Of a stretch of DNA of 64,000 nt, positions 2,341 through 59,980 are shown piece by piece (position 1 is the stretch's first letter; every line of letters starts with the position of its first letter). The stretch is from NCBI GenBank assembly GCA_963702095.1, contig OY969706.1, positions 2,496,001 through 2,560,000 of the forward strand, written 5' to 3'. Source of the DNA: Candidatus Bathyarchaeota archaeon. Lineage in GTDB: Archaea > Thermoproteota > Bathyarchaeia > Bathyarchaeales > Bathycorpusculaceae. The notes below the pieces were generated by a model. That model searched no databases, was not told the origin of the DNA, and worked only from the letters and a program-made list of their open reading frames with translations. Both the position numbers and the translations under genes were made by a program.

Positions 2341-2480
2341 TTTTGTTTTTTCTAGTTTAAGAAGAAGAGAAAGTCGCCCTTACTCATCATCTTCTTAGGG
2401 ACTTGGAAGGCGGTTGCTTTTTCGGTTTACGTGTTGGGGCATATTGCAAGCTGGTTGAGGCGTTTTCCACAAGCAGAACA
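2341..2480 (+). repeat. Dispersed intergenic repeat family 1, copy A
   Basis: T-tract, TAAGAAGA/TCTTCTTA stem, CGGTTGCTTTTTCGGTT, TTGCAAGCTGGTTG and CAAGCAGAA. Blocks recur at 37.5, 43.7 and 59.8 kb. Confidence 0.85.
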
Positions 2481-2627
2481 ATAAATTTAGGCTTTTTTGG
2501 AAAAGTTTTAGCAAGAAGAACGTAAAAACCCGACTGAAAGGTATGGTTGATTTAATGGTAGGAATTAAAGTTAAGGAAGAACTGAATCGACCATTCTGCT
2601 TATAGGTCAATCCAATCTTCAGCAGTT

Positions 2628-3413
2628 TTAGCCTTTTTTGATTATATTTTGGAATCGGGTGTTGCTTATTGGGTGGTGGCTGATGATTTTGCCGTCGTTG
2701 ATTATGCAGAAGGTTCCGAAAGCACATGGCGACTGCTGAGCCATCTGTGCGTCTTTCAAATCCACAAGGTTCACATCAAGCCCCATTTCTTTGGCTGTTT
2801 CGATGATTTCCTCAACGTTTTTGACTGAGTAGGGACATTGGGGAGAGCGAATAATGGTCAATCCTTCCCTGTAGCCATTGAGGGGTGGAATGGTGAATTT
2901 TGGGTTGGCGGCGTCTGGGTTGAATTTGAGGGCTAAAAGTTCAAAGTCCGGTTTAGCTGTGTCGACAACGGCAAAGCCTTTTTTGAGGAAAATCTCCTTT
3001 TTTGCCATGAAGGGGCCTTTTCGAGTGACTACGGCTACGCCCTGCATGCCTACGTCTTTAGCCTCTTTTATACATACATCAAGCATGGCTGAAGCGTAGC
3101 CTTTGCCTTTGAACTGGCTTTTGAAGCCTACGAATATGCAGTGAATGAACATGTAATCGTCCACTTGTACTGGGCGATGCGCGTACTTGCCGGGGATGTA
3201 TTCGAGCATGCCCTGGTAGCCGCCTGTTTTAGAAATAAGCGCCTTAATCCTAAGTCCCTTGGGATAATACTCTTTGAACCACTCTATTTTCCGCCTAAGC
3301 TCCAGATGCTTCTCTACATCCTTATACCCGCAGACGCCATAGTCAGCGATGTTTGCTGGAGTCAGGTCGATTATGGTTGTATCATTGTTCTCTGCCAAAA
3401 GCAACTTCCTCAC
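2628..3413 (-). CDS. GNAT acetyltransferase with YoaP domain
   Basis: FIHCIFV and KGKGYAS acetyl-CoA motif; C-terminal SPQCPY and PCAFGTF thioredoxin-like YoaP domain. Confidence 0.85.
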   Translation of the reverse strand: MRKLLLAENNDTTIIDLTPANIADYGVCGYKDVEKHLELRRKIEWFKEYYPKGLRIKALISKTGGYQGMLEYIPGKYAHRPVQVDDYMFIHCIFVGFKSQFKGKGYASAMLDVCIKEAKDVGMQGVAVVTRKGPFMAKKEIFLKKGFAVVDTAKPDFELLALKFNPDAANPKFTIPPLNGYREGLTIIRSPQCPYSVKNVEEIIETAKEMGLDVNLVDLKDAQMAQQSPCAFGTFCIINDGKIISHHPISNTRFQNIIKKG

Positions 3414-3465
3414 TGGAATTAGTGGGACTTGCGTGTTTAAGCCTTTAGAGTATTAGGCACCGCTT

Positions 3466-4329
3466 CTAGGAGAACAGCTGAATAAGTAAACCCAGCAAAG
3501 TGAATAATGCCACTATACAGGAGATGATGATTACGACTCGGCGTTCAGTTAAGGGTCGATGGTAAACAATTGTTGTTACGAGGCTCTTGCGGCTATCCGA
3601 GCACAGTTTCTTTCCGTCGAATGTGACGGCGGCTTTTTTGCGGACAAAAAACACTGATAGCAAGATGATTGAGGAGTTGAATATGAAGGGTAACATCGAA
3701 AACAGCAGGTTCACTTTCATATCGGAGATAACGGCAAAGGAGGCTATGGTCATGCCGATGGCAAACGACCCCGTGTTGCCCACAAAGATTTTGCCGGACA
3801 CGTTTAAGGCTGCGAGCACCAGCCAGAACAGTAGGGGTCCCAGCATCAGTAGCCAGTTGGGTGAGAACACCATTAAGCCAGCGATGACTATGGCGGGGCA
3901 AACTGTTTCAAGCCCGTTTAATCCGCCGAGTTGATTTACCGTGTTAGTTACAATCATGACAATGAGCGGGATTATGATGTAGAAGTAGGCTATGCCGAAG
4001 TCTATAGCTCCTACAAACGGGAGCGTTATGGAAGTTCTTGCACCCACAGTCTGCGCATAATAGATTAGGGGTAACGCAGCGATTAGGGGCATGAAGGCTT
4101 TGTAACGCCATTTCAAATCGATCCAGTCATCCATCATACCCATGAAGCCGCCGAAGAGGATACATGCGGCTAAGGTAAAAGCTGCAGATACTGGTTCAGG
4201 GTTAGAATTTTTTTGTAAGAAATAGACTAAAAAGAGGTAGACGGTGGTGAATAGGACGTAAAAAACGCCTAAACCGTTGGGGATTAAAGGTTTGCCGACT
4301 TTGTGTTGGTCGGGAACCCTCGGGAACAC
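3466..4329 (-). CDS. aglH: UDP-GlcNAc:dolichyl-phosphate GlcNAc-1-P transferase (MraY/GPT family); start uncertain
   Basis: Polytopic membrane protein with MMDDW, TNTVNQLGGLNGLE and KIFVGNTGS motifs; directly downstream of aglB. Confidence 0.8.
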   Translation of the reverse strand: MFPRVPDQHKVGKPLIPNGLGVFYVLFTTVYLFLVYFLQKNSNPEPVSAAFTLAACILFGGFMGMMDDWIDLKWRYKAFMPLIAALPLIYYAQTVGARTSITLPFVGAIDFGIAYFYIIIPLIVMIVTNTVNQLGGLNGLETVCPAIVIAGLMVFSPNWLLMLGPLLFWLVLAALNVSGKIFVGNTGSFAIGMTIASFAVISDMKVNLLFSMLPFIFNSSIILLSVFFVRKKAAVTFDGKKLCSDSRKSLVTTIVYHRPLTERRVVIIISCIVALFTLLGLLIQLFS

Positions 4330-4342
4330 TGTAGCCGCTTCC

Positions 4343-6635
4343 TTATGAGGGCGGGGTTATTCCGTTGTCTGCGTCGTATGCTGCCCAGTCGATGGAGTAG
4401 ATGGCGACAATCGGTACTAGTCCGCCGTACTGTGTTGGCGATATGTTGAGACCTGCGAAGTATGCCATGTGGAAGTATGTTGGCACAGTGGCTTGTTCTG
4501 AGGGCTGGACTGTGTATGAACCTTGTTGTGTGATAACTGTGCTGTACAATACCAATGCATAGTTCAGTAGTTCTTCTACAGTGCAGTTTAAGCCACGGTC
4601 GTTCCATTGCCACTGGTTAGTCGAGGTACTAGTGGAGCCAAAGGATGTTTCATTATACCACATGTCGTCTGCGCTGATGAAGCCTTGGTTGATGAATCTT
4701 TGCCGGTCTTCGCCTGAAATCCTTGCCATCCACATCCACTTGCCCTCGTCTCCGTATCCAACGGGATACGCGGTAAATGTGTTGCTGCTGGTACTCGACT
4801 GTGACATTCCAATGACTAGGAAGACAGCCATGTATTTAACGCGGTCCTGTCCGTAGGTGGAGAGCATAGCTAAGGTTTGATTCTCAGTACCCATGAATGC
4901 GAAACCCAAGTTTTCTATTTGCGTACCGTTGACGGTGGTGTTGTCTGCGATGCTTGTGACGTTTCCTATGTCACTTAACCAGTTGCCGTAGTCCCACCAC
5001 ATTGCCACTACATCTGTTGATTGAGCGTTATCTCTTAGCCAGCCTAGGGCATCGGTCCATGCGGTGACCGGCGCGGTTAGGCTACTTCCGCCTAGCGGGA
5101 GGCTTGAGGCGCTGATTGCTGTGGGAGTGTAGGCTTGCGAGATGGTTCTCGGCATGCCTGTGCCTGTTTGAGGCGAAAACGCCAGGTTTGAAACCAAGAG
5201 TATGAATATGACTAGGATTGCGATTCCACTGAATTCTTTGCTGACCCGTGGCAGTTTTCGTTTTGATTTCGCCAGCGTCTTTGAAGACTCTCTTAGCAGG
5301 TTAAAGAAGGGTTTTGTTGTTGTGATTATGCCTATGGCCGCGATGATTGCGAATGCCGGAGCAAAGATGACTAGGCAACCGAACCATTGAGGTGGCGAAG
5401 TACAGTGAAGTTGCCCCGAAGAGTAGCAGGAATATGTTTCGGTTAGTCGGTTTTTTAATGGTGAAGTAGAGACCGACGAGGAAGAACAGGACGCTAATGC
5501 CTAATTCGATGTAGATGTTGCCCCAAGCAGATATTCTCTGTTCAGCCACTGAGTCAATTAGAGGCGAAGACGCCCTGATGAAGGGGTCTAAGACAGTGAT
5601 GAATTTTCCTGTCAGGTTTTCTAGTCGACCAGTTAATGCTAAGACACCAAAGCCGCCTGCCGCTGCAGCTAAGGCAACTATGCCTATTGTGAGTTTGCTT
5701 TTTGCTGAGATATTGTTTCTGAGCAGCTCCGCCACTATCAACACCAGAAATATACCGGCGACTGGAAGAATTGCGCCCGACGTGATGTAGTTGAGGGATA
5801 TGTAGGGCACCTGCATACCTATGAAGAGGGCTAACCCGAAGGTTATGCTGTAGCTAATGAGCATTCTTGGGTTGTATCTTTTGAGGAGAACCAAGACAAA
5901 CACGAAGAGGGCCGCTAAATCGATTATGTAGTATGCTGCACCCCAACCCGCGATAAAGTATGCTAAGGATAAACCGGCGCCAACGGCATATAAAATAGAT
6001 GCTCTAAGTGATCGGTTGCCATCTAAAGTGCGCATGAATAGGAAAATGAACAAGACTAAGCCCAAGATACCGGGGATTTCTGTGTCATAAAAGCCCAGTG
6101 AGCTTCTCTGCACAAAAGAAGGTGCTAACGCAAGGAATAAGGCTGCGAATAAGCCGACTGCTTTTCCGCCCATGTCTTTACCTACAAAGTAAAGGATCAA
6201 GCATGATAGAGCTGCGATGGCTGCGGGAAGAATAGCGCAGAAAGTCATCAAATCTACATGACCGAAGACTGAGACGATTGCGTAGATTGCTGCTCCCGTC
6301 ATAGGCAGCGCTGGAAGTGAAGTGGACATGTCCAATCCGTTCGGGAACCACTTCATTGTGTTAATCCAGTGTGTTGGATAGTAGGGTGAAAGCAACCCGT
6401 TGTTTATCATGTGTTGGGTGATGCTGTACTGGTAGTAGGGGTCAAACTCGTTAAGGTAGGAGGTGCCGGATGCAAGGTTTTCCCAGCGTAGAGGTAGAAT
6501 GCGAACGGTGAAGGCTACAAAGAGTATTAAAACCAAAGCCGAAATGGCAAGGATGGTGCCGTGGCTTATATTTATGCCGAACCTGTCGAATCCTGAGAAG
6601 CTCTTGCCTAGTCTCTCCTTGATTGTTTCCCCCAA
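4343..6635 (-). CDS. aglB: Oligosaccharyltransferase AglB/STT3, split by a 1-nt frameshift at ~5374
   Basis: EFDPYY, GFYDTE and SVAEQ in ORF 5301-6635; WWDYG and DNTT in ORF 4343-5197. Removing one base restores SMVRLLVIFAPAFAIIAAIG. Confidence 0.93.
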
Positions 6636-7246
6636 CTTAAGCCATCTCTCTTTCCAATGTATATTCAGATTGTACTATTTTACACATTAGGGGTTTATTT
6701 ATGGCTTTCCAAAACTTATCGGCAGTATCTCTAATGATCACTATAGTTTAGATATGCATTTTTGCTTGACAATTATTGATTTCAGTATTCCTTACAAGAG
6801 GATTTTCTTATTTCCCCCCAACTTGCCCTTATACAGCCCCCAAATTATCGTGAAAAGAACAAAACCTGCCCCAATATGCATACGCAGTTTAACCCTGTTT
6901 TGGACAGACACTGCAATACCCAAAACCCACTTTTTAAATTCAACGTTTGTTTGCGGGTTTAACTTCTACCTCAAGGGGCAACAATGACAGTTTCCTGCCA
7001 CACTTTGGGCATTTTCCGCCATGCTGCTGGATAATTTCATCCGGCGGCGCTAAGCTCCAAACCTTCATATAAAACAAAACTACAACCGTGACAAATGACT
7101 CGTTGCGGCACCCACTTATCCCCCGATACTTACACGGATATGGGCTATTTATTGGTTGCTAAAAGACCATAGGTTAACGTTTACTGCAGAGCGTCTGTAA
7201 AGCTTTTAATGAACAAAGGCTTCAGGATGAATAGGTTTGGAACCGA

Positions 7247-9322: not shown

Positions 9323-9549
9323 AATGCAAAATCTGTAGCCGTGAGGCACAACAAAACGGTTATTGTATACTTCACAATAGAGCTTACCAAAATATATTGG
9401 ATAAATATAAAACATGGCAGAAAGCATCTGGGGTTACGTGGAACCAGTATTTGGCTGCGGTTCAGAAAAATTCATTAACTGGAGAATGGGCTAAAGAAGT
9501 AGTAAATCAGGTAATTGAGGAAGAGAGCAAAAAATGTCAGGTAAAATAA
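9319..9549 (+). CDS. Small CxxC...CxxH zinc-finger hypothetical protein
   Basis: TTG start overlaps the topA stop; MKCKICSRE...YCILH. Confidence 0.7.
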   Translation: MKCKICSREAQQNGYCILHNRAYQNILDKYKTWQKASGVTWNQYLAAVQKNSLTGEWAKEVVNQVIEEESKKCQVK

Positions 9550-9956: not shown

Positions 9957-10016
9957 TCAAGCGGTTTTTTCTCCGCTAAAAAATCTTTTTGCTCTATTCT
10001 GTTGAAGATTTTTGTT

Positions 10017-10535: not shown

Positions 10536-10548
10536 GGGGTTTCAACCG

Positions 10549-11253: not shown

Positions 11254-11313
11254 GGATTATTAACTTGATGATAGATATTGTGTTTTGCACTTAAACGTTT
11301 AAGGATTGATTTA

Positions 11314-15710: not shown

Positions 15711-15759
15711 CTTAACAGGAAAAAGGAAAACTCGATTAGAATATTTAAGTAAAAGCCTG

Positions 15760-16430: not shown

Positions 16431-16461
16431 TGCGGTTCACCCTAAGGATACAGGAGAAGGT

Positions 16462-22845: not shown

Positions 22846-23023
22846 CATGCACCCACACCCACACGGCGGCGACTTCAACATGGAGCCATGCAGGGCATGT
22901 GGAGAAAAACCCATATCCCACACCATAACAGTCGCTGAAAAACGTTACAAAAACAAAAAGCATTTGCCCTCCAACACCTTCTTCTTATGGAACCCCACAA
23001 ACCGCCACACCCACACAAAGAGA
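22846..23023 (+). repeat. Dispersed intergenic repeat family 2, copy 1
   Basis: CTTCAACATGRAGCCATG, TGTGGAGAAAAAC, ACCATAACAG and CGCCACACCCACAYAAAGAGA shared with 54686-54860. Confidence 0.85.
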
Positions 23024-23100
23024 CCGCTTGACTTTCGGAAAGAAATAAATCCGTATCCAACCTGTAGTTTACTGAGGAATATTTTTTGTCCCAGTCAAGT

Positions 23101-36189: not shown

Positions 36190-37482
36190 ATGAGCAGCAA
36201 CAGGCGCATGAAGAAGTTTTTGGTTCCCACCATCCTCATCGCCATCATCGTTGTCTCAGCGTTCGCCACTCAGCAGGTCTACTTTAACGGCAGCCAAGAA
36301 AGCCTACCCATACCATACGTAGGCGTTGCCTTCGCTGGAAACACAACCACACAAGCCATCGAACAAATTGACCGAGTAAAAACTTACACTAACCTTTTCA
36401 TTTTGGATTCAGGCAGAAACCCCATCAGTCGCAACGAGTCAGCGGTCTATCAAATCTGCGATTATGCCGTCGCCAATGGATTGAACGTAATACTCAATTT
36501 AGGCATCAACGACATCATCCAAACCAACGAATCCACATGGTTTTGGCAGGAATCCATGACCGACATAAAACAGAACTTCACCCAACGCTGGGGAGCCAAA
36601 TTCATAGGCGTATACTATAACGATGAACCCGGCGGCATCCAGTTGGACGGCGACTGGACAGCATGGTACAAAACGTTCGGGTCGCATCTCAGCCAACTCA
36701 GCCAAACCCAGAATCCCGCATTCCAAGACCTCTACCAGATGTACCTCAAAATGCTCGCTTATGCAGAAAACGGCACCAAACCCGCCGACTACGATTTAGA
36801 AACAAGCTTTTTCGTAAACCATGTAGTGGCTGAAGACCCCGGATTAGTGGCGCTCAACAAAGCTCAAATCAGCACCTTCACCTCCGATTATGCGCTTTAC
36901 TGGTTTGACTACTTAGGCACTTACGATGTCATGTTTACAGAGTTAGGTTGGAATGAAAGCATTGCCCAGCAGATAGACCTCGTCAAAGGCGCGGCCAGGC
37001 TTATGGATAAAGACTGGGGCGCCATGGTCACCTGGAAATATATGGATGTACCATTTCTGGATACCGGAGGCCAGATTTACGATCAAATGCTAATGGCTTA
37101 CCAAGCTGGCGCCAAATACATCGCAATTTTCAATTACGCCAAAGACGACAAAGGCAACACCGCCGCCGCCATGACTGACGAACACTACCTTGCGCTGGAG
37201 CGGTTCTGGAACGACATGCACACCGAAAAATTCGCGGACTTAAGTAAGCCTGAGGCTGTGCTGGTTTTGCCGCATAACTACGGGTGGGGCATGCGTAACC
37301 CCACCGACACGATCTGGGGTTTTTGGCCTCCGGATGACAGGTCCGTGCAAGTGGGAACCGTCATGAGTCATTTGCTCGCCAAATACGGTGCCAGCCTCGA
37401 CATAGTCTACGAGGACTCCATGTACCCAATATCGAAGGTAGACTACCAGCATGTGTACTATTGGAACACAACAAATGTCTAG
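36190..37482 (+). CDS. Membrane-anchored or secreted hypothetical protein, possible glycoside-hydrolase TIM barrel
   Basis: N-terminal TM segment; GVYYNDEPGG, FTELGWN, AGAKYIAIFNY. Confidence 0.7.
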   Translation: MSSNRRMKKFLVPTILIAIIVVSAFATQQVYFNGSQESLPIPYVGVAFAGNTTTQAIEQIDRVKTYTNLFILDSGRNPISRNESAVYQICDYAVANGLNVILNLGINDIIQTNESTWFWQESMTDIKQNFTQRWGAKFIGVYYNDEPGGIQLDGDWTAWYKTFGSHLSQLSQTQNPAFQDLYQMYLKMLAYAENGTKPADYDLETSFFVNHVVAEDPGLVALNKAQISTFTSDYALYWFDYLGTYDVMFTELGWNESIAQQIDLVKGAARLMDKDWGAMVTWKYMDVPFLDTGGQIYDQMLMAYQAGAKYIAIFNYAKDDKGNTAAAMTDEHYLALERFWNDMHTEKFADLSKPEAVLVLPHNYGWGMRNPTDTIWGFWPPDDRSVQVGTVMSHLLAKYGASLDIVYEDSMYPISKVDYQHVYYWNTTNV

Positions 37483-37505: not shown

Positions 37506-37644
37506 TTTTCTTTTTTTAGTGTTAGAAGAATAGGATGCCGCCCTTACTCATCATCTTCTCAGGGACATGGCAAGCAACTGTGTTTTGCGTTCGGCAATAG
37601 AGATGCGATGCTGGCTGGTTGAGGGCAAATCCTCAAGCAGAACC
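37506..37644 (+). repeat. Dispersed intergenic repeat family 1, copy B
   Basis: CGCCCTTACTCATCATCTTCT identical to copy A; GCTGGTTGAGG and CAAGCAGAAC. Confidence 0.85.
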
Positions 37645-37663
37645 AAAAAAACCCTTTGACTCT

Positions 37664-38386
37664 CTAGAAGGGCTCGTAGTATCTGGGGTCCGAGTATCTG
37701 CTTTGCTTGAAAATCGTATAGCCTGCTGCGCCCCCGATTACTGCGCCAAGGGTGAAGCTGATAATGATCCATGAGTTGAAGGTTGGAAACGGGTTATGAA
37801 ACCCCAACTGAACCAGCCCCGCCAACAATAAGCCACCTCCAAAAAACAGACCCACCGCACCCGCGAATGCTCCAGCAGCGATTATCGAGAGTTGAGCACC
37901 CAGCATTTGACGGTTCGGCTGCATCATTGACCTCTTAACCCTTGCCTTCTCGGCGGCGATTAGGAAAACAAAGGCTAAAACCGCCGTCAACAGGTACTCG
38001 GCAAACGGCTCCAGCAAAATCACTCCTGAAAGGAACAGCCCAAAATCCAAAGCAACCATCGCGACGGAGAAGAGGCTTACCACGATCATGTAGCCCCTTG
38101 GAAAAGGCGCTTCAATCTGTGACTGGCTCTTCCTCGCTGCTAAATCTTGTACGAGGTTGGCGGCAAGTTTTCCCTTATCAGTCAAGACATAGAGTCCCCC
38201 GCTGTCTTTCGTAACTAACTCGCTTAGGACTTTTAGGTGGTAGTTGAGTTTGCCCGTGTTGCTTATTCCAAGTGCCGTCATTAAGTCGGTGTAGCTTTGG
38301 CTGCCTTTCTCGTTTAGTAACGCAACGATTTTTCTTCTTTTTTCGTCCTTGAGTACTTTGTGCAGGGATTCAAGTCCAGAGGGCAT
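37664..38386 (-). CDS. ArsR-like winged-helix regulator fused to a 4-TM domain
   Basis: LKDEKRRKI...NTGKLNYHLKVL...YVLTDKG followed by hydrophobic helices. Confidence 0.85.
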   Translation of the reverse strand: MPSGLESLHKVLKDEKRRKIVALLNEKGSQSYTDLMTALGISNTGKLNYHLKVLSELVTKDSGGLYVLTDKGKLAANLVQDLAARKSQSQIEAPFPRGYMIVVSLFSVAMVALDFGLFLSGVILLEPFAEYLLTAVLAFVFLIAAEKARVKRSMMQPNRQMLGAQLSIIAAGAFAGAVGLFFGGGLLLAGLVQLGFHNPFPTFNSWIIISFTLGAVIGGAAGYTIFKQSRYSDPRYYEPF

Positions 38387-43293: not shown

Positions 43294-43674
43294 TTAAGAG
43301 AGGGGTTGACCTTGACCTGAAACTGGGCTTAGGTCTTCTTGCAGTTTAGTCTGTGACTCTTTAACTTGGCTGCGGACGCGTTCTTCCTGTCGGTTGATGA
43401 CGGTGCTGCGGGTTTCGAGCAGGGACTTGCGTTCGTTGAGGTCTTCGCTTACTTTGGCTTTTTCTGCTTTGACAAGCAGTGATCCAATGGCTTTGTAGAT
43501 GACTGCGTCGTCTGTGGTTTTGGCGAGTTCTGCGAGGGTTTGTTCTACCTCAACTTTTTCCATGTCAACCTGCTGTTTTTGAGCCATAATCGACTGCAGC
43601 GTCTGCTGTAACTGTTGGAGTCTGAGAAGCCTTTCTTGCACGTTAGGCGGTAATCTGGATAGTTCATCACTCAA
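43294..43674 (-). CDS. pfdB: Prefoldin beta subunit
   Basis: LPPNVQ...LQQLQQ, IYKAIGSLLVK, coiled coil. Confidence 0.95.
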   Translation of the reverse strand: MSDELSRLPPNVQERLLRLQQLQQTLQSIMAQKQQVDMEKVEVEQTLAELAKTTDDAVIYKAIGSLLVKAEKAKVSEDLNERKSLLETRSTVINRQEERVRSQVKESQTKLQEDLSPVSGQGQPLS

Positions 43675-43727: not shown

Positions 43728-43732
43728 AACAC

Positions 43733-43868
43733 TTTTTTTCTATAGTAGTTGTTGGCGAAAACCCGCTATACACAACAACAACCAGCAGAGTTTGTGAACG
43801 GTTGCTTTTTCGGTTCAGAACCTATTTCGTGTTGCAGGCTGGTTGTGGAGCAAACCTCAAGCAGAATC
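43733..43868 (+). repeat. Dispersed intergenic repeat family 1, copy C
   Basis: GTAGTTGTTG/CAACAACAAC stem; CGGTTGCTTTTTCGGTT identical to copy A; TTGCAGGCTGGTTG and CAAGCAGAA. Confidence 0.85.
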
Positions 43869-43924
43869 AAATAACCTTTTAATCCACTGTATAAGGGGAA
43901 GGGGAGAGGCGGCAGAGCAACAGA

Positions 43925-44545
43925 TTAGCCCTTGCATCTTTGTCCCAATAATTTCTCTGCCAACTGCAACTCCTGCACGGTGTTGATGTTTACGGCGAGT
44001 TCCTCGTAGTTGAGGACGTAGATGTCTTGGTCGAGCCATTCGTCACCATAACGTTTGCTGCCATCAATGACGTTTATGCCCACTGGAACCAGTTCCTGCC
44101 CGCATTCGCTAAAAGAGTAGTCAACGCACATTCCAAGCTGGGTTTTAGCATTGATTGGAACCGCAACCGTCAACGCGGGCTTACCGCAACGCTCATACCG
44201 CTCCACAATCGCATCGATCATCTCGGACTTGACCAGTGGCAAGTCGGCGGCAATCGCCAAAAACACGCCCAACTTAAGCACCTGCACAGTGTAACCCATG
44301 TCGCTGACATAGTCGTTGCCGGGGGTTTCGATGACCTGCACGCTTTGCTGCTTCATCAACGCCGCAGTTTTTGGAGTAACAACGGTTGTGGCGACAATTA
44401 TCCTATCGATTTTCTTCGCGCCTCTCAGCGCTTCTATAACGTATTCGATGACGGGTTTACCGCAGACATAAATCAGCGGTTTCTCTTCGGCGAGTTTCAT
44501 GCGGGTGCCTTTGCCGCCTGCCATAACCAGTGCCGTTACACCCAT
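43925..44545 (-). CDS. cobY: Adenosylcobinamide-phosphate guanylyltransferase, paralog 1
   Basis: MAGGKGTRM, EKPL, ADLP, GINVI, NINT; overlaps cobS. Confidence 0.88.
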   Translation of the reverse strand: MGVTALVMAGGKGTRMKLAEEKPLIYVCGKPVIEYVIEALRGAKKIDRIIVATTVVTPKTAALMKQQSVQVIETPGNDYVSDMGYTVQVLKLGVFLAIAADLPLVKSEMIDAIVERYERCGKPALTVAVPINAKTQLGMCVDYSFSECGQELVPVGINVIDGSKRYGDEWLDQDIYVLNYEELAVNINTVQELQLAEKLLGQRCKG

Positions 44546-46420: not shown

Positions 46421-46429
46421 TTTGGTGGC

Positions 46430-48452: not shown

Positions 48453-48508
48453 GGGTTTTTCCGTAAATTATAATACCTCCGCGGTTGAGGGTTAATCGTT
48501 GGCTTCCC

Positions 48509-49666: not shown

Positions 49667-49713
49667 CCATGTAACGGAAACAATATAGCTCTCTATACGG
49701 AATGTAGCAACTG

Positions 49714-53683: not shown

Positions 53684-54539
53684 CTCGCCGTGTCTTCTTA
53701 ACTATCAAAAGGACAGCCGCAACCAATGCCACGGCAACGACAGGCAGCACAACATAGTAGGGATTGATTGGCGGTTGATTCTGTGGTGTACCTGTTGGGA
53801 AAGGGTCTGGTGAGTATGCGCGGGTGAGGAGTTTTGTTCGGGGGTGGTTATCTTGGCAGTTCTCGTTAATGACGTATGGGGTGTCCCATATGGCTGAATC
53901 GCCGAGTTGTTTGGCTTGCGGATACCTTGTGGTGTAGTCGCTCCAGTAATTCATATCCAGTACGGGTGGAGCTGATAGCCAACCCTGTATTGAGCAGTTT
54001 ACGAAGTCGTTGTTTGTGATTTCACTTGTGCCTGCATAGTTAATTGCTATGCCAGCTTTTTCCAAGCTGTTAGAGGATATTGTGTTGTTGAAGCTGCCGA
54101 TAATCCATATGCCGTCAATACAGTTTTTAATGGTGTTACTGCGGAAGGTGTTACTGTTGGTGTTGGCGATGTTTATGCCATAGTAAAAGTTGCTGATTGT
54201 TAGGTTAGCAACTGTTATGTTGTCTATTTCTGTTCGGGTTGGGTCCTGTCCTCTGCCGTTTGAAAGGTCCACTCCGAAGCCTTCACCGTTTCCCTCTATA
54301 CCAAACCCAGCGCCGTCCAAGACAATGTTACTTCTCTGGATGGATATGCCGCCTGAAATGTTGGCGGTTAAGGTGTAGATGTCTCCTTCGCGTTGGATGC
54401 TGCTGGTTCCTGTGACTGAGCCGTCAGGATTAATGATTATGCCTGTGTTGGATTGGGCGGTTGCGGGCTCAAAAAGGGCGACACATAGGGCAAGGGCAGA
54501 CAGCAGTATGAGCGTTAACGTTAGGGCGGGTTTTGGCAT
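53667..54539 (-). CDS. Short NosD-like beta-helix surface protein
   Basis: INPDGSV, DGAGF, NYWSDY, DNHP, TM anchor. Confidence 0.85.
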   Translation of the reverse strand: MPKPALTLTLILLSALALCVALFEPATAQSNTGIIINPDGSVTGTSSIQREGDIYTLTANISGGISIQRSNIVLDGAGFGIEGNGEGFGVDLSNGRGQDPTRTEIDNITVANLTISNFYYGINIANTNSNTFRSNTIKNCIDGIWIIGSFNNTISSNSLEKAGIAINYAGTSEITNNDFVNCSIQGWLSAPPVLDMNYWSDYTTRYPQAKQLGDSAIWDTPYVINENCQDNHPRTKLLTRAYSPDPFPTGTPQNQPPINPYYVVLPVVAVALVAAVLLIVKKTRRGGSGA

Positions 54540-54685
54540 GGAACTTCAGAGTATCGCTGACGTTGGCGGTTATAATGGGTTTTCGTCAAGAAACCTTGAC
54601 TAACAATGCGGCAGCAACGAGCAGTTTTGGCGAAGTTGGCTAAACAAAACGCTGTGGGGGTTTGTGAAAAAAAAACCAGATGGTG

Positions 54686-54860
54686 CATGCTTTCACACAC
54701 ACATCCTGACCCCTTCAACATGAAGCCATGTACCGCGTGTGGAGAAAAACACCGCTCCCAAACCATAACAGCCGCGTAAAATAAGTTGCAGACCCAAAAA
54801 GCAAACGTCTTCTCAAACAGTCTTGTGGCCCCCGTAAAACGCCACACCCACATAAAGAGA
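54686..54860 (+). repeat. Dispersed intergenic repeat family 2, copy 2
   Basis: Collinear similarity to 22846-23023. Confidence 0.85.
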
Positions 54861-54920
54861 AGAAAACAATCTTTCTATAAACAGGGGAGTGGGAGAGGTT
54901 GGCAAAGCGACAGTTGCCGC

Positions 54921-56480
54921 TTATTTTTTGCGTCTGAGCTTCTGTGGCACCGTTATGGTTAATTCCCGTTTGACTGGTGTCTCCTTAATTGGTTGCTCCA
55001 TCTGAGGCACCACCTTCTTTTGCCGCTCAGCATAGTCTTTTTCGATGGCGACGCGGTGGACGTTGTTGTATGCGCAGAAGGGAATGATTTTCTTGTCAGG
55101 GGTAATGTAGTGGACTACACATCGGCGCACTCGGTTAACGTCAAAGTTGTAGCTGTCCATAAACGCCATGCAGCCTAAGAGGAAGATGCGGCGGCGGATT
55201 TTGCCCAAGGACTTGTATGTGGGGTCCATGTGCATTTGCAGGATGCTCTTCATCAATGTGAAGGTGCCGACTTCTTTGGTGACCAGCAGCATGTTCATCG
55301 AGATCATGGCGCCCATAAACAGCGGCGCAAGCAGTTGAAGTTTATTTTTAGACTCGGCATTTTCAGCTGTTTTGCGGATTGTGTTGAAGAATCGCTCAAA
55401 GTTCACGAAGCGGTTAATCGGATACATTTTACCCGTACGGGGGGAAACGTAAATCCAGTTTACGATGCCGCATTGTGGGCTGCAACTAAACAGCGGCCAA
55501 GGCTTCTGCATGAACTGCCGCATAATCTTAATCGGCGAAGTCATCACTGACATTGGGTAGAGGTCTGTGCTTTTGACTTCTCCGTTGGTCTGGTTCTCAA
55601 CGTCTTCAGCGAAGCTCCATTCGCGGAAGTTCTCGCGGAAAGGATTCTCCGTTGCCCTGCCAGTGAAGGCGATAGGCTGGAAAATTAAGCCTCGCACGAT
55701 GTCAGTGTTTTTGGCGGCGAAGCGGATCATGTCGCCGACTTCTTTGTCGTTGAGACTTTTCATCAAGGTATTAACTAGGATGACTTCCATGTCGTATTTG
55801 CGGCAAACATCAAGGGCTTTAAGCTTCATTTCCACAAGTGGTCGCCCACGGATTTTCTTGTTAAATTCCTCGTGGAAACTGTCAAATGATAAATAAACAA
55901 TGTTTAAGCCACTCTCCTTAAGCCGTTTAGCTAATCCTTCATCAGTAACCAAGTGGGTGCCGTTGGTCGCCAAAATCGTCATGAATTTTAGACGGTGTGC
56001 AGCCGCGACGATTTCAGGCATGTCTTCGCGTTCAAGCGGTTCGCCTCCACTGAACAGTATCGCAGGCGGTTTAGGGTTGGCTTTAGCAGCGAACTCTAAC
56101 ATGTCGATGAGGGCTTCTTTGGTGGGCTCGTAATCGGTGGTTTCCTGATTTGGAAAAGTGGAGAAGCACACTGCACATCGGAAGTTACAGCGCTTGGTTA
56201 CGTCGATTACGCCGATGACTGTGCCTGATGCGTGGTTGTGGCATGTTTCGCAGACGTATGGGCAGCCCGGGGGGTTTTTGGGTGCGTTGAGGTCGCCAAG
56301 GTACTGGAACTGGTCGTATTTGCGCATGTGGTCAAAGATGGGTGGGCTCTGCCAGTGAGTGGCTTTGAATTCGCCGTGTTCGGGGCATTGTTTGGTGATT
56401 TGGATTTTGCCGTTTACGTTTCTGAGTTGGGCGTCTATTTTCTTTTGGCATTCGGGACAGATGCTTTTGGTTTCACTCAA
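54921..56480 (-). CDS. tes: Tetraether lipid synthase (Tes/GDGT-MAS family radical SAM)
   Basis: N-terminal SICPEC...CPEHG, CPYVCETCHNH, CNFRCAVC, FSGGEP, C-terminal CMAFMD...RCVVHY...IIPFCAYN. Confidence 0.85.
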   Translation of the reverse strand: MSETKSICPECQKKIDAQLRNVNGKIQITKQCPEHGEFKATHWQSPPIFDHMRKYDQFQYLGDLNAPKNPPGCPYVCETCHNHASGTVIGVIDVTKRCNFRCAVCFSTFPNQETTDYEPTKEALIDMLEFAAKANPKPPAILFSGGEPLEREDMPEIVAAAHRLKFMTILATNGTHLVTDEGLAKRLKESGLNIVYLSFDSFHEEFNKKIRGRPLVEMKLKALDVCRKYDMEVILVNTLMKSLNDKEVGDMIRFAAKNTDIVRGLIFQPIAFTGRATENPFRENFREWSFAEDVENQTNGEVKSTDLYPMSVMTSPIKIMRQFMQKPWPLFSCSPQCGIVNWIYVSPRTGKMYPINRFVNFERFFNTIRKTAENAESKNKLQLLAPLFMGAMISMNMLLVTKEVGTFTLMKSILQMHMDPTYKSLGKIRRRIFLLGCMAFMDSYNFDVNRVRRCVVHYITPDKKIIPFCAYNNVHRVAIEKDYAERQKKVVPQMEQPIKETPVKRELTITVPQKLRRKK

Positions 56481-57382
56481 CTTAGTAGCACTCCAGCGAG
56501 TCCTTCAACTATTAACGCTAAGGGCAGCAGCATCATTGACATGGTTACGATGCGCTCATATTTACGTATATTCTGCACCGTTGACCCAGAAGTGAACAAA
56601 CGTATGGCTGAATAAATCAACAGTACACTCCACATTAAGATGAAAGGTAAATAGAAAACCATGAATTCCCCGATGAAATAGGGCAGCGGCGCAAACAATC
56701 CAGTTAAAAGGAAGAAAACCGCGCCAACTTTAGCGGCGTTGTAGCTGCCGATTTTCTGCGGCAAGGTGGGATAACCGACTTTGGCGTCGCCTTCTGCACT
56801 AAAGACGTCACGTAGCACGTTACCGCCTATTGTGCCCAAAGCGATGGGGTAGAGGCTTATCGACGCGAAGTTAACTGTTCCAGTTACCGTTGCCTGTCCA
56901 TAGATGAATGCGGTGCCTGTTAGAATACCCATCAACAGGTTCGCAGCGAAACCTGATTTGCGTTTAATCAAGAAAGAGTACACCACAAGCAACAATGAGT
57001 CAGCGGCGATTATTGCAAAGGCAAGCCAGTTAATAAAAAACGACAAAACCAACCCCAAAGCAAAAAACGTGCCTGAGATGGCAACAGCCTGTTTGTATGA
57101 GAGTGCACCTGAGGGAATGGGGCGTTTGGGTTTGATGACTGCGTCGCTTTCGCGGTCGAAGTAATCGTTTATGGCAAAACCGCCTGAGGCAATGAATGCC
57201 ATAGATAAGAAAGTCAATAGTGCCACCGCCCCAACGTTCATGGGACCCAGAAGTGTTTGGATATCTGCAAAGTTGCCTTTTAGAATGGCGAACGCTGTTA
57301 GAACCGCTAAGCCACCAGTCATGAGCCAATAGGGCAAGCGGAGGAGCGCGATTAATCCTCGTGTGGGCGAGGACTGGTTCAT
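56477..57382 (-). CDS. DGGGP synthase (UbiA prenyltransferase)
   Basis: NDYFDRESDAVIKPKRPIPSG, YS..IKR, RDVFSAEGD...TLP; ATGA overlap with the epimerase. Confidence 0.85.
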   Translation of the reverse strand: MNQSSPTRGLIALLRLPYWLMTGGLAVLTAFAILKGNFADIQTLLGPMNVGAVALLTFLSMAFIASGGFAINDYFDRESDAVIKPKRPIPSGALSYKQAVAISGTFFALGLVLSFFINWLAFAIIAADSLLLVVYSFLIKRKSGFAANLLMGILTGTAFIYGQATVTGTVNFASISLYPIALGTIGGNVLRDVFSAEGDAKVGYPTLPQKIGSYNAAKVGAVFFLLTGLFAPLPYFIGEFMVFYLPFILMWSVLLIYSAIRLFTSGSTVQNIRKYERIVTMSMMLLPLALIVEGLAGVLLS

Positions 57383-58305
57383 ACCTTGATTTTCCTGTCG
57401 GCTATGACTTCTTTTATGCTCTCTTCCAAGGTGACTTTGGGTGTCCAGCCGAGTTCTTTTTTGGCTTTGGTGATGTCGAACCAGATTTTGGTAACATCCC
57501 CTTGCCATGATACACCTGTGGTTGAAACAGCCGTTCGGTTCTGGAGGTTGAGGATTTCAAGGATCATGTTTGCAAGTTCAAGTATGGAAACTGTTTTTCC
57601 TAATCCTAAGTTGTAGACTTCGCCGTTGACATCTACTTTTTTGCCCAGAAGAACAAGGGCTTCCACAACGTCAGAGACATGTACAAAGTCTCGGCATTGC
57701 TTCCCTGTACCTATAATTTCTAGTTTGTCGGGGTTTTTCGCCAGTTTCTCAAGAAAATCATGGATGACTCCGTGGCAACGTAAGCCGTAGACGTTGGCGA
57801 ACCTTGTGATTACGATGTCTAAGCCGTATTGTTCACGGTACATTTGGCAGTATTCTTCGCCTACGACTTTGCTTAAGCCATAGCAGGAGAAAGGGTGGAA
57901 ACCGTATGATTCAGGTGTTGGAAAAACGGTTGGGTTACCGTAGACAGCCGCGGATGAGGCGAACACGAGTTTTGCGTCGTCTTTGCGTGCTTTCTCGAGC
58001 ACGTTGAGGGTTCCTTTGGCGTTTGTTTCGAAGTCTACCAGCGGGTTCTCCATGGAGTAGCCCACGACGACTTGCGCTGCTAAATGGTAGATTAAATCCT
58101 GTTTGGGCTGGCTGCAGAGGGTTTTTAGGTCTAAGATGTCGCCTTGGACGAACTTTGCGTCTGGTACATCTTTAACATTCTGCAGTGTGCCGCTTGAGAG
58201 GTTATCGTAAATAGTCAAGTTGCTGGTTAAGCCAGATAGTTTCTTGCAGAGGTGATAGCCTATGAAGCCTGCTCCGCCAGTAACCAGTGTTTTTTTCCCT
58301 TCCAC
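57379..58305 (-). CDS. NAD-dependent nucleotide-sugar epimerase/dehydratase
   Basis: TGGAGFIG, HLAA, SSAAVYG, YGLSK, RDFVHVSD. Confidence 0.92.
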   Translation of the reverse strand: MEGKKTLVTGGAGFIGYHLCKKLSGLTSNLTIYDNLSSGTLQNVKDVPDAKFVQGDILDLKTLCSQPKQDLIYHLAAQVVVGYSMENPLVDFETNAKGTLNVLEKARKDDAKLVFASSAAVYGNPTVFPTPESYGFHPFSCYGLSKVVGEEYCQMYREQYGLDIVITRFANVYGLRCHGVIHDFLEKLAKNPDKLEIIGTGKQCRDFVHVSDVVEALVLLGKKVDVNGEVYNLGLGKTVSILELANMILEILNLQNRTAVSTTGVSWQGDVTKIWFDITKAKKELGWTPKVTLEESIKEVIADRKIKV

Positions 58306-58362
58306 ATTGTTTCCCCCAATCAACGATAAGCCTATATTTTATACAGGCGAGTTGGTAGGTAT

Positions 58363-59211
58363 ATGTCGGCGATGAAAGCTATAAAAGTTTTCAGGGATTT
58401 ACTGTCCTTCTTAACCATCATCCCAGTGGGTGGAAAAGAAGACTTCATTTTCACCACAGCAAAGAACATGTGGCTTTTTCCCCTCATCGGCGGCTTCATG
58501 GGGCTACTCGGCGGCGCATACTTCATAGCTTCCAGCTGGGTGGTGAATTTTCTGCTCGGCTTAGCCAGCGCCTACGTGGCTTTGCCCACCTCATTGTTGG
58601 GAACAGCTATTCCGGCGGCGATGACCATTGCCTTTCTGCTGGTGTTGACTGGGCTGCAGCATTTTGACGGCTTAATCGATTTAGGCAACGCAGTCGGCAT
58701 CCGCAGTGAGCATGACCGCAACATGAAAGCACACGCGTGGACGGTGACCTATGCAGGTGCGGTATTGGCGATTGCCGTTGAATTGTTGGCGTTTATCGGG
58801 TTGTTTTTGGTTAATCCCTCAAACCTCTGGTTTGGGTTCTCAGCCATCGTTTTAGCAGAGGTCGCAGCGAAACTGTCCATGGTAACCATTGTGTGGGCTG
58901 GGAAGCCTTCGCACAAGGGGTTAGGCTCGATTTTCCTTGCTAAAGCCAAAAAGAACCTCAACGTAGTCGCCTACGTGTTCTCAGCACTAATCGCCCTATC
59001 AATCGTCTTTGTCACTGGGAGCATCATTTTGGGTTTAGCCTCAGTTGCTTTGGTGTTCGTTAGTGTTCCAGTTGCGTTTGTCATGAGAAAAGTGTCCAAC
59101 AGTGTCTTTGGCGGAGTCAGCGGCGACATGATTGGGGCAACCAACGAAACCGCAAGGGCGGTGACACTGGTGCTGTTTGCAGTGGTGCTTTGGGTGGTGG
59201 CTGCTGCATGA
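58363..59211 (+). CDS. cobS: Cobalamin synthase, paralog 2
   Basis: FLT, TGLQHFDGLIDLGN, GVSGDMIGATNE. Confidence 0.85.
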   Translation: MSAMKAIKVFRDLLSFLTIIPVGGKEDFIFTTAKNMWLFPLIGGFMGLLGGAYFIASSWVVNFLLGLASAYVALPTSLLGTAIPAAMTIAFLLVLTGLQHFDGLIDLGNAVGIRSEHDRNMKAHAWTVTYAGAVLAIAVELLAFIGLFLVNPSNLWFGFSAIVLAEVAAKLSMVTIVWAGKPSHKGLGSIFLAKAKKNLNVVAYVFSALIALSIVFVTGSIILGLASVALVFVSVPVAFVMRKVSNSVFGGVSGDMIGATNETARAVTLVLFAVVLWVVAAA

Positions 59212-59822
59212 AGATTCCCGCTTTGATTATGGCTGGCGGCAGAGGCAGCCGCATGGGGTTGCCCACTGAGAAGCCGATGCTGCCTTTTTTGGGTAAGCCG
59301 CTGCTGGATTGGGTAACCTCGGCAGTTTTGAGTGCAACCAAAATCTCAGAGTTCTACATAGTCACAAGCGCCAATACGCCGAAAACTGAGGCGCACTGTA
59401 AAGAGATGGGCTGGAAAACCGTACACACTGAAGCAAAAGGCTACCACGATGACCAAAAGCAGGCTATTCGCCAGTTGGGTTGGATGGGACCAGTGTTGAC
59501 CATGCCTTCGGATGTGCCTGCGATTACTGGACCAGTTTTGGACCGGGTGGTCGATGAGTTTGAGGCAAGTGGCAAAGACTTCCTTGCCGTGTTTGTCCCT
59601 ATCGAGAAGCGGCAGGAGTTGGGTCTGTCGATTTCCTCCACTGACGAGTACAAAGGCGTGTGGTATGCTGTGTCAGGCGTAAACGTGATAAACGGCGCAA
59701 AAACGTTGGGGGAAGGTAAAATTGAAACGGCAGCCATAATTACAGAGGACCCCCAGGTTATCTTAAACGTTAATACGACGAAGGATTTTGAGGTTGCTGA
59801 GCGTCTGATGGCGAAAAGTTGA
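59208..59822 (+). CDS. cobY: Adenosylcobinamide-phosphate guanylyltransferase, paralog 2
   Basis: MAGGRGSRM, EKPM, SDVP, GVNVI, NVNT; ATGA overlap with cobS. Confidence 0.82.
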   Translation: MKIPALIMAGGRGSRMGLPTEKPMLPFLGKPLLDWVTSAVLSATKISEFYIVTSANTPKTEAHCKEMGWKTVHTEAKGYHDDQKQAIRQLGWMGPVLTMPSDVPAITGPVLDRVVDEFEASGKDFLAVFVPIEKRQELGLSISSTDEYKGVWYAVSGVNVINGAKTLGEGKIETAAIITEDPQVILNVNTTKDFEVAERLMAKS

Positions 59823-59840
59823 GTTGTACTTAACCGCTGG

Positions 59841-59980
59841 TTTGTTTTTTTCTATAGTTGTTGTTGCCATGACCCCCTCTTTTTTCAACAACAACCAGCA
59901 GATTGTGGGAATGGTTGTGTTTTGGCTTTGGGCTTAGCTGATAGTTGCAGGTTGGTTGTGGAGCATTCTACAAGCAGTTC
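59841..59980 (+). repeat. Dispersed intergenic repeat family 1, copy D
   Basis: Perfect GTTGTTGTTG/CAACAACAAC stem, CAGCAGA, TTGCAGGTTGGTTGTGGAGCA and CAAGCAG. Confidence 0.85.

Follow-up and report, generated by a model that had tools for sequence, protein, structure and literature searches.

A 64,000-nt stretch of a Candidatus Bathyarchaeota archaeon genome (hereafter the window) carries four copies of an intergenic element of ~140 nt, in which hairpins and conserved blocks surround a 16-nt segment that differs from copy to copy. This arrangement raises the question of whether the element is a guide-like non-coding RNA, a REP- or MITE-like repeat or a protein-binding site with strict spacing, the three possibilities considered in a first-pass annotation of this DNA.

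The four copies and their genome-wide family

A covariance model trained on other family copies finds exactly four matches in the window (71-140 bits), all on the plus strand at the places previously annotated, and the order of parts that had been described is borne out: a T tract, a hairpin, a conserved block, the 16-nt segment and TGC-N2-GYTGGTTGWGG-N9-CAAGCAG. The stem reads AGAAGA/TCTTCT in copies A and B and GTTGTTG/CAACAAC in copies C and D, and the copies are indeed mosaic, CGGTTGCTTTTTCGGTT being identical in copies A and C. The individual features are as follows.

2342-2481, plus strand: copy A, type 1, from oligo-T and CTAG to CAAGCAG plus 5 nt (covariance model match, 137.2 bits)
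2361-2394, plus strand: hairpin H1 of copy A, arms GAAGAAGA (2361-2368) and TCATCTTC (2387-2394), 18-nt loop with CCCTTACTCA (read from the sequence and family pair counts)
2428-2443, plus strand: 16-nt segment of copy A, TACGTGTTGGGGCATA, alignment columns 87-102 (sequence and family alignment)
2451-2476, plus strand: hairpin H3 of copy A, arms CTGGTTGAGG and CCACAAGCAG, G.G mismatch, 6-nt loop (sequence, pair counts and RNAalifold)
37506-37645, plus strand: copy B, type 1 (covariance model match, 140.3 bits)
37525-37532 and 37551-37558, plus strand: H1 arms of copy B; its 16-nt segment at 37592-37607 and H3 at 37615-37640
43730-43869, plus strand: copy C, type 2 (covariance model match 43732-43869, 80.5 bits)
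43745-43754 and 43773-43782, plus strand: H1 arms of copy C, GTAGTTGTTG and CAACAACAAC; its 16-nt segment at 43816-43831 and H3 at 43839-43864
59842-59982, plus strand: copy D, type 2 with a variant loop (covariance model match, 71.3 bits)
59857-59866 and 59886-59895, plus strand: H1 arms of copy D; its 16-nt segment at 59929-59944 and H3 at 59952-59977

As had been noted, a minus-strand ORF ends 20-150 nt to the right of every copy (at 2628, 37664, 43925 and 60063). Three copies lie between convergent ORFs: copy A between a family B DNA polymerase (148-2274, plus) and a YoaP-like ORF (2628-3413, minus), copy B between 36190-37482 (plus) and 37664-38386 (minus), and copy D between 59190-59822 (plus) and 60063-60602 (minus). 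Copy C is located upstream of a prefoldin ORF (43294-43674, minus) and downstream of a MobA-like ORF (43925-44545, minus); a type 2 copy also occupies its matching site in a relative (G005), and the similarity of metagenome contigs to copy C ends at 43733-43748, 43831 and 43865-43866. A copy with 97% identity to copy B is present at genome position 2345617-2345773.

The description of a four-copy element is correct for the window but not for the genome: with a core model we found 181 family copies at E<1e-5 in the 2.94-Mb source genome, 161 of them near full length and together covering 25,223 bp (earlier models gave 176 and 182 genome-wide matches at the same threshold). Both strands are occupied, with 81 plus-strand and 95 minus-strand copies among the 176 matches and no overall strand bias. 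Each unit is ~140 nt long: it opens with an oligo-T run and CTAG, followed by a 5' hairpin and a middle under loose constraint, and closes with a well conserved 3' hairpin that ends in CAAGCAG. Its conserved blocks, among them GCTGGTTG and CAAGCAG, stand at constant distances and are retained by 85-98% of copies. Among 142 aligned copies, 93 belong to type 1 and 45 to type 2; the stem swap of the first-pass annotation is therefore real, and it marks two subfamilies. In eight pairs of copies that are at least 90% identical and have unrelated flanks, the common unit begins 4-16 nt before CTAG, and its right border falls between 18 nt before and 2 nt after CAAGCAG in five pairs and 11-22 nt after it in the other three. 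The similarity of metagenome contigs also stops at these unit borders. Gene conversion starting from the conserved end blocks, instead of transposition, could alternatively explain why such near-identical pairs end so sharply. A second repeat family (114 copies, 18.6 kb) has its central module in common with the ~140-nt family.

Hairpins, unit ends and the search for a mobiliser

Across 100 distinct sequences from several genomes, pairing is found in 85.7% of cells, compared with 78.9 +/- 0.6 in shuffles, none of 500 of which reached the observed value; when the partner is slid, pairing in the same sequences falls to 37-61%. The 5' hairpin retains its pairing despite a wholly different stem in the two subfamilies, AU-to-UA flips occur at five H1 pairs (in 5-30 sequences), and a third H1 stem, GTAGA/TCTAC, was seen by eye in the alignment of a weak relative from another genus. 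The 3' hairpin, with its conserved G.G mismatch, was recovered independently by RNAalifold. Compensatory changes are thus present between subfamilies, but type 1 shows nearly no covariation (RNAalifold covariation term -0.13; shuffles equal the observed value), and the compensatory signal accordingly represents a few subfamily-level events. In the type 1 H3 stem, C>T substitutions outnumber G>A substitutions by 43 to 14, versus 140 to 234 in the rest of the element, and family-wide the H3 stem holds 101 G.T and about 22 A.C pairs (summed from pair counts). We conclude that, on the plus strand, the H3 stem favours substitutions preserving a G.U/G.T wobble. The element as a whole is not unusually stable, with MFE z-scores of +0.82, +0.09, -0.30 and +1.02 for the plus strand against shuffles; since these scores are unremarkable, the lower plus-strand energy is a composition effect.

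Neither end of the unit, TTTTTCTAG... or ...CAAGCAG, is an inverted copy of the other, and a search for clean terminal inverted repeats found none: 11 of 123 copies lie above the 95th percentile of the null distribution, with ~6 expected. The flank motif TAGATCAAAATTTGG on the left and its inverted partner on the right occur together in only three of 123 copies. By eye, a palindromic TTAA adjoins the outer flank motif where the motif is present; it could be a target-site duplication.

The single-contig source genome (G000) has no matches for PF01797, PF07282, PF01609, PF13358, PF13359 or PF02371, and no IS200/605, IS110, IS4/5, IS630 or PIF transposase was found in it; the PF01797 search gave control matches in six genomes, and a search with PF04986 gave no signal in its controls. 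Two sub-threshold rve-like ORFs are present, and this ORF type does not follow the element across the genus. Among 15 element-rich genomes, DDE_3 is found in none and DDE_Tnp_4 in only one. Self-comparison of the source genome yielded no multi-copy IS-like repeat of at least 500 bp. Seven matches are tyrosine-recombinase-like.

Distribution among relatives and alternative readings

The 61 congeneric genomes differ in copy number, from 0 to more than 50 copies: a covariance model search matched 28 genomes, 15 of them with at least nine matches, and left 33 without any. In a class-wide sample of 121, a single genome outside the genus, from the same taxonomic family, has multiple matches, and these 11 are weak. 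At 18 of 30 sampled loci of a sister species (G007), a source-genome copy shares at least 300 nt of flank, with an identity of ~0.82 in the flanks, ~0.63 in the element middle and ~0.75 at its ends (sums that omit two cross-pairings of a tandem pair). Many copies are therefore old, with conserved blocks still kept at the matching sites, which fits host function as well as a selfish element. Comparison of filled and empty sites provided no clean empty site; the two loci filled in the sister species and lacking the element in the source genome are replacements or longer indels and do not represent precise insertions. The two flanks of one sister-species copy correspond to different source-genome copies, the left to one and the right to another, and copies coincide with synteny breaks between the species.

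The 16-nt segments bear on the proposal that the copies form a large family of putative plus-strand small RNAs with their own transcription, the variable segments acting as guide or antisense sequences for a partner molecule. A conserved scaffold around less conserved internal segments and a stem constraint confined to the plus strand are consistent with such RNAs, as is the position of TAGATCAAAATTTGG 27-31 nt before CTAG in 19 of the 23 copies with the left motif, a distance that would fit a putative archaeal TATA-like element directing transcription from near CTAG. The motif is, however, present in just 23 of 123 copies on the left and 13 of 123 (inverted) on the right, most congeners lack the family, no Rfam relation was found and the overall fold is no stabler than shuffles. 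The segments of the four window copies are mutually unrelated, as had been claimed, but family-wide they follow a subfamily consensus, CTGCAACGGAKWTGGG or CTGCGTCTGNTTTGGG. With a length of 16 nt in 137 of 142 aligned copies, a majority fraction of 0.58 and a mean pairwise identity of 0.45 (comparable to 0.44 for the 3' hairpin loop), the segment is the least constrained internal segment and not a hypervariable cassette. The 16-mers of this segment have 22 matches in the rest of the genome, none exact, versus 11-23 for shuffled segments, which speaks against the guide-like reading of the first-pass annotation. We therefore regard the small-RNA proposal as improbable; the family consists of interspersed repeats rather than a guide RNA set, and a new guide-RNA system is not supported. 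The copies might alternatively be double-stranded sites for a putative architectural or regulatory protein, the symmetry of the repeats reflecting dimer binding and not folding. The highly retained blocks at fixed spacing and the absence of any thermodynamic excess over the whole element agree with this idea, but a sequence-specific duplex site would not tolerate the complete replacement of the H1 stem with pairing kept, and duplex recognition does not predict the strand-specific wobble asymmetry of H3, so that we consider duplex binding very improbable.

A further alternative is that the host has exapted the copies as cis elements, kept as putative transcription stops or insulators between adjacent, often convergent, genes or as 3'-end RNA structures that determine mRNA stability. 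Most copies are intergenic, and 37 of 97 intergenic copies lie between convergent genes, against a background of 19%; a 5' T-run of at least five is found in 110 of 123 copies irrespective of the neighbour, and when the gene upstream is co-oriented with the copy, the median distance from its stop to CTAG is 60 nt (in many cases 11-40 nt). These observations favour a role in cis, as do the retention of conserved blocks at matching sites of two species with ~82% identity in the flanks and the wobble-preserving bias of the H3 stem. Yet 33 of the 61 congeners have no match, and an essential role is therefore impossible; copies between co-directional genes occur in both orientations (18 sense, 28 antisense), and runs of at least five are rare in the 3' flank (A-run in 21 of 123 copies, T-run in 23 of 123). 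Moreover, because the T-run lies 5' of the structured part, a transcript ending there would lack the hairpins. We judge this explanation possible but unlikely.

Class assignment and meaning

Of the classes proposed at the outset, a REP- or MITE-like repeat fits best: the copies are dispersed in their hundreds, their number is patchy among congeners, unrelated loci can hold nearly identical copies, intervals between convergent genes are over-represented and the 5' oligo-T run is intrinsic. Like MITEs, the family is small, non-coding, multi-copy, intergenic and taxon-specific, but MITEs have terminal inverted repeats, flanking target-site duplications and a cognate autonomous transposase with the same ends; as neither clean terminal inverted repeats nor such a transposase was found here, the family is not a classical MITE. 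A census of archaeal MITEs used tools based on terminal inverted repeats (PMC11602168), and its main text does not contain the string 'Bathyarchae'; a census of this type would miss the present family.

Enterobacterial REP/BIME sequences share with the family imperfect palindromes, compensatory stem changes, a location at gene 3' ends or between convergent genes, hundreds of copies, the lack of terminal inverted repeats and, as proposed for the present element, action as single strands. REPs, however, are imperfect palindromes of ~20-40 nt (typically ~35 nt) associated, as are BIMEs, with RAYT (Y1 HUH) transposases, whereas the present unit of ~140 nt has two different hairpins and a non-palindromic middle, and its genome has no Y1/RAYT-like gene; REP/BIME proper was rejected. 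IS200/IS605-derived palindrome-associated elements and TnpB omega-RNA scaffolds resemble the family in that same-strand hairpins lie close to each end, clean terminal inverted repeats are lacking and a variable stretch of ~16 nt adjoins a structured scaffold. An IS200/IS605 palindrome-associated element or TnpB omega-RNA was rejected, as TnpA(Y1) and TnpB gave no matches and the variable stretch is internal and has no match excess, whereas an omega-RNA guide sits directly outside the right end; the genome-wide copies (81 plus, 95 minus) also differ from this class in showing no overall strand bias. Integron attC sites form cassette arrays in which every ORF is followed by a site, with an integron integrase alongside; they were dismissed, as the window copies lie 6-35 kb apart with many genes between and the family occurs in both orientations genome-wide. 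Archaeal C/D box sRNAs have terminal C (RUGAUGA) and D (CUGA) boxes and guides of 10-12 nt; among the four copies, only a minus-strand GAUGAUGA in some type 1 copies and no placed D box was found, and this class was set aside. The first-pass annotation recognised no known family, which holds for Rfam: the whole window has no match at gathering thresholds (Rfam 15), the best sub-threshold matches having E-values of 3.4 and 2.4 and sR35 reaching 10.5 bits, where the gathering score is 60.

BOX, like RUP and SPRITE, is described by Croucher et al. (2011, PMC3049150) as a short, strongly structured, modular intergenic repeat of pneumococci with hundreds of copies, found in one species group and near-absent from the rest of the genus, with rare new insertions and expected effects on transcripts running into it. 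The likeness to BOX as described there extends to patchy distribution, old resident copies and modules common to two families; the present family differs in its archaeal host, its initial oligo-T run and a two-hairpin layout that presumably bears no resemblance to BOX in sequence. Being multi-copy, intergenic and modular, with predicted hairpins and restriction to close relatives, it is a BOX-like modular interspersed repeat, a descriptive class and not a homology family.

Taken together, the data favour, with a probability of about 0.55, an old family of modular repeats with hairpin ends, restricted to one lineage and most similar in type to bacterial REP/BIME and pneumococcal BOX, that multiplied within part of one Bathyarchaeia genus. 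The element would have spread as a non-autonomous unit by means of a putative trans-acting enzyme that recognised both terminal hairpins of the single-stranded plus strand, as RNA or ssDNA; spread may now be slow or stopped, and resident copies may be held near the consensus by selection or gene conversion between copies. Archaeal RNA polymerase terminates at oligo-T, and the 5' oligo-T run could serve as a putative intrinsic terminator for a co-oriented upstream gene. A more radical version, in which the repeats are substrates of a mobilisation or RNA-guided system new to Archaea, would involve an enzyme outside the known transposase families, the two terminal hairpins and a single-stranded plus-strand intermediate, maybe with ~140-nt RNAs from the putative TATA-like motif whose variable middle helps to choose the target. 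It has some room because element-rich genomes lack a known transposase, the 3' stem constraint is strand-specific and modules are shared, but we give it little chance.

The family of modular hairpin-ended repeats adds a new archaeal case to the interspersed repeats described as 'selfish or half-domesticated' in bacteria, a counterpart of REP/BOX-type repeats without a recognisable mobiliser and with conserved blocks kept at old sites. Together the two repeat families make up ~1.5% of the genome (25.2 kb and 18.6 kb of 2.94 Mb). Copies are also found at contig ends in a relative's draft assemblies and, as they lie at synteny breaks as well, the repeats affect assembly, binning and comparison of Bathyarchaeia genomes; the covariance model annotates the family in the 28 matching genomes of the genus. 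The family thereby offers a tractable case for distinguishing persistence as a parasite from persistence as a regulatory part, and for the search for the copying enzyme.

A two-subfamily repeat and its companion

The four-copy observation of the first-pass annotation was borne out in the window: aligned with one another, copies A to D show a mean column identity of 68%, the right half aligns without gaps, and TGC, GGTTG, GG and CAAGCAG are among the blocks that do not vary. A covariance model of the ~140-nt element (R1), built from 26 copies of which 24 come from other genomes, matched the 64-kb window four times and no more, each time on the plus strand, and a search with elements against the masked genome placed two copies of a second repeat there.

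2342-2481, plus strand, copy A (type 1)
37506-37645, plus strand, copy B (type 1)
43732-43869, plus strand, copy C (type 2)
59842-59982, plus strand, copy D (type 2)
22854-23024, minus strand, second-family copy
54694-54874, minus strand, second-family copy

ORF calls confirmed that a minus-strand ORF terminates close to the right of every copy A to D; three of the four are flanked by convergent ORFs, and copy C has a minus-strand ORF on either side. The proteins encoded beside them, a family B DNA polymerase, a prefoldin and a DUF7347 HTH protein, identify the source as archaeal. Minus-strand ORFs also cross copy A (2395-2727, 110 aa) and copy B (37551-37772, 73 aa), in differing frames; in all likelihood these ORFs are spurious products of the A/C-rich, stop-poor composition, which leaves every frame of this strand open. 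A coding element was rejected, as variability shows no periodicity of three bases (means by phase 0.197, 0.233 and 0.250).

The description of a four-copy element holds within the window, but not for the source genome (G000, one contig, C1, of 2,937,366 bp with 46.8% G+C), where a profile of copies A to D found 176 matches at E<1e-5 (81 plus, 95 minus; 163 near full length) and a core model found 181 (161 near full length), totaling 25,223 bp. Likewise, the stem swap between copies A/B and C/D is real, but family-wide it is the split between type 1, with the 5' hairpin (H1) stem GAAGAAG/CTTCTTC, and type 2, with GTTGTTGTTG/CAACAACAAC; the 142 aligned copies include 93 of type 1 and 45 of type 2. 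Seven loci in relatives (L151, L135, L035, L142, L045, L152 and L064) carry a chimeric H1, in which the type-1 GAAGAAG arm is joined to a type-2-like CACAACAAC replacing CTCATCATC; the loop region of such a variant reads CAACAAC with the GAAGAAG arm kept. Judging from these chimeras, the subfamilies appear to swap modules with each other; in the type count for relatives, a simple classifier put the chimeric variants under type 2. An alignment read by eye revealed a third H1 stem, GTAGA/TCTAC, in a weak relative from another genus.

The second repeat is ~175 nt long, has 114 copies and occupies 18.6 kb of G000. Like the ~140-nt element it begins with a T run; it also contains CTCTTTATG and two hairpins of its own, GTGGCG/TGCCAC before and GTGTGG/CCACAC after a central module, GGCGGYTGYTTTTTGG...GCAAC, that is common to both families. 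A coding role for this second family was discarded on an in-frame stop in one window copy.

Terminal hairpins and the variable segment

The 3' hairpin (H3) pairs in 83-98% of 142 copies at each position, except for a W-W pair (62%), and a G.G mismatch inside it is conserved in 117 of the 142. In an R1-based alignment of 109 matches (100 distinct), which is structure-fitted and hence leans towards structure, 85.7% of cells pair, compared to 78.9 +/- 0.6 in shuffles (0 of 500 as high), and sliding the partner reduced pairing to 37-61%. The same alignment revealed AU to UA flips at five H1 pairs; within type 1 alone, covariation is next to nil. RNAalifold independently returned H3 and a 4-bp H1, whose register can shift by 3 nt, since each arm is a trinucleotide repeat.

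Helix tests on the family alignment gave no convincing conserved helix in the middle of the element: a candidate at columns 65-69/86-90 pairs in only 54-77% of copies, and another at columns 72-76/89-93 is 73.1% paired versus 70.5% in shuffles, 55 of 500 of which were as high. Column-wise helix scanning and RNAalifold on sets of 93, 45 and 142 copies found almost nothing. Averaged pair probabilities rise to no more than 0.2-0.4, at the two end hairpins alone, and whole elements showed no thermodynamic excess over dinucleotide shuffles on either strand (z from -0.30 to +1.02). The plus strand has the lower energy in 131 of 142 copies, a gap that is compositional and stems from its G+T richness (59%). 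The strand-specific signal that survives the composition control is a substitution bias in the H3 stem, where C>T (which leaves G.T) outnumbers G>A (which gives A.C) by 43:14 in type 1, versus 140:234 in the rest of the same elements; type 2 shows a weak bias in the same direction (17:14 in the stem versus 54:97 elsewhere). This bias points to pairing of the plus strand, either as RNA or as single-stranded DNA.

Majority fraction of each block in the family alignment
T tract: 0.80
H1 loop, 3' half (TTACTCAT): 0.81
Post-H1 segment: 0.64
16-nt window: 0.58
TTGCWGG: 0.85
H3 5' arm: 0.91
H3 loop: 0.56
H3 3' arm: 0.86

From these fractions, the 16-nt window, a variable segment within the element, shows the weakest constraint inside the element: 131 different versions occur in 142 copies, at a pairwise identity of 0.45. 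It nonetheless has subfamily consensus sequences; that copies A to D diverge in this segment is by chance. The proposal that the segment serves as a guide did not survive, since its matches in the genome are no commoner than those of shuffled windows: 137 16-mers searched outside the copies with at most one mismatch yielded 22 matches, none exact, compared to 15, 23, 12, 11 and 11 for shuffled sets. Guide targets for whole elements were also rejected, as the excess in the masked genome (270 matches versus 80 for reversed controls) is the second repeat family.

Gene context, ends and mobility

By crude ORF calls, 97 of 123 copies are intergenic, and convergent gene pairs flank 37 of these 97 (background 19%); the others lie between co-directional neighbours (28 antisense, 18 sense) or divergent ones (14). 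A 5' T run of at least five is present in 110 of the 123 copies, independent of neighbour type; in the 3' flanks of the 123, neither A runs nor T runs recur consistently.

Eight pairs of copies at least 90% identical reside at unrelated loci, with flanks that bear no relation to each other. The shared stretch begins inside the T run, 4-16 nt before CTAG, and its other end falls, for five pairs, between 18 nt before and 2 nt after CAAGCAG and, for the other three, 11-22 nt beyond it. In small shares of four DNA metagenome runs, the similarity of contigs to copy C stops at 43733-43748, 43831 and 43865-43866, and per-copy flank comparison found no clean terminal inverted repeats. A flank motif, TAGATCAAAATTTGG, is real (the wrong-orientation control scored only 1 of 246) and keeps a fixed spacing to the element; of 123 copies, 23 have it on the left, 13 on the right (inverted) and 3 on both sides; it was rejected as an outer terminal inverted repeat because it is on both sides in only those 3 and varies between copies 99% identical inside. 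Since it differs between near-identical copies, it must belong to the target or context, or else be what is left of an older, longer form; in the latter case, the sharp pair ends would result from gene conversion with its anchors in the conserved end blocks. The look-alike of this motif at copy C belongs to the prefoldin gene, as its conserved upstream region, and is present also in a relative without the element there.

The flank motif of this minority of copies, in the form (TTAA)CAGTAGATCAAAATTTGGG, precedes CTAG by 27-31 nt (as near C1 2676415 and 2776977) and, inverted, lies 17-25 nt after CAAGCAG; it may serve as a target site or TATA-like promoter element, or represent an old terminal repeat. 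Two 'lone' motif copies, at C1:2128439 and C1:2631770, share a G/T-rich tract (GTTGTTTGTTTGGGGTTGGTGG...) that follows them, and similar tracts adjoin element copies in the relative G014 and at C1:1918537; this tract may be a third repeat.

No clean pair of filled and empty sites was found at the copy C site, L135, L143 or the locus after PolB in relatives. The copy C site is filled in G005; in G014 a type-1 copy lies ~55 nt further along, and the element is missing from G012, where the synteny differs; L135 and L143 are not clean empty sites, and the gene after PolB differs in element-free relatives.

Searches of the single-contig G000 for a mobiliser gave no matches to Y1 (PF01797), the TnpB zinc ribbon (PF07282), DDE_Tnp_1, DDE_3, DDE_Tnp_4 or IS110 (PF02371), for all of which positive controls matched; in the Y2 search the positive controls were silent. 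Self-comparison of G000 found no multi-copy IS, and its tyrosine-recombinase-like matches number seven. Two sub-threshold rve-like ORFs of ~380 aa (C1:1162128-1162340 and C1:1963138-1963353) may represent an unclassified transposase, and such ORFs, weak matches to the integrase core, are multi-copy in several congeners (up to 7 in G049). The occurrence of this ORF type does not follow that of the element: it is present in element-free genomes and absent from several element-rich ones; 17 congeners are DDE_3-positive, none among the 15 element-rich.

Affiliation, distribution and rearrangement

The first-pass annotation did not recognise the element as a known family, and no Rfam family matches it. 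It fails the defining tests of MITEs, REP/RAYT and IS200/605 derivatives, and therefore can be assigned only to a descriptive class, the interspersed repeats. The closest known kind is the REP/BIME and BOX/RUP/SPRITE type of repeat: Croucher et al. (2011; PMC3049150) describe BOX, RUP and SPRITE as confined to close relatives, with slow turnover and extensive secondary structure, and the family studied here shows the same pattern. We found no published account of repeats in Bathyarchaeia; the supplements of the published MITE census may list archaeal elements.

Among the 61 congeneric genomes, R1 matched 28 and left 33 without a match, and 15 had at least nine; no more than 53 matches were scored per genome, and copy numbers range from 0 to more than 50. 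Sampling across the class gave matches in 6 of 121 genomes: besides G000, only one genome, of another genus in the same family, had multiple matches (11, all weak), and the remaining four had single, marginal ones. The 3' hairpin pattern occurs many times per record in Candidatus Bathyarchaeia/Bathyarchaeota MAGs, with single matches in bacterial records; six viral contigs match this pattern exactly, none of them with a full element.

Among 30 sampled loci of the sister species G007, the nearest relative, 18 have a G000 copy with at least 300 nt of common flank. For 20 true pairs, identity is ~0.82 in the flanks, ~0.63 in the middle, ~0.78 in H1 and ~0.73-0.76 at the ends (summed from pair rows, with two cross-pairings within a tandem pair excluded); the middle of matching pairs is barely more alike than that of random family members (~0.45-0.65), with the conserved blocks retained. 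Old resident copies would thus be either under constraint or correcting one another.

A 2.9-kb two-gene segment is duplicated in G000 at 87% identity (C1:197822-200718 and C1:988056-990947), both duplicates having a right-half element at one end and a further element, full length at the C1:988056-990947 locus, at the other. Draft contigs of G007 terminate inside element copies. The flanks of L155 in G007 map to C1:2820956-2821095 (plus) and C1:2879088-2879227 (minus), and L002 and L139 are further split-flank cases, versus C1:979188-979327; inversion or recombination between repeats would be expected to leave flanks of the L155 type. Several G007 copies thus have their two flanks at separate places in G000, with an element at each, the pattern expected of recombination between copies.
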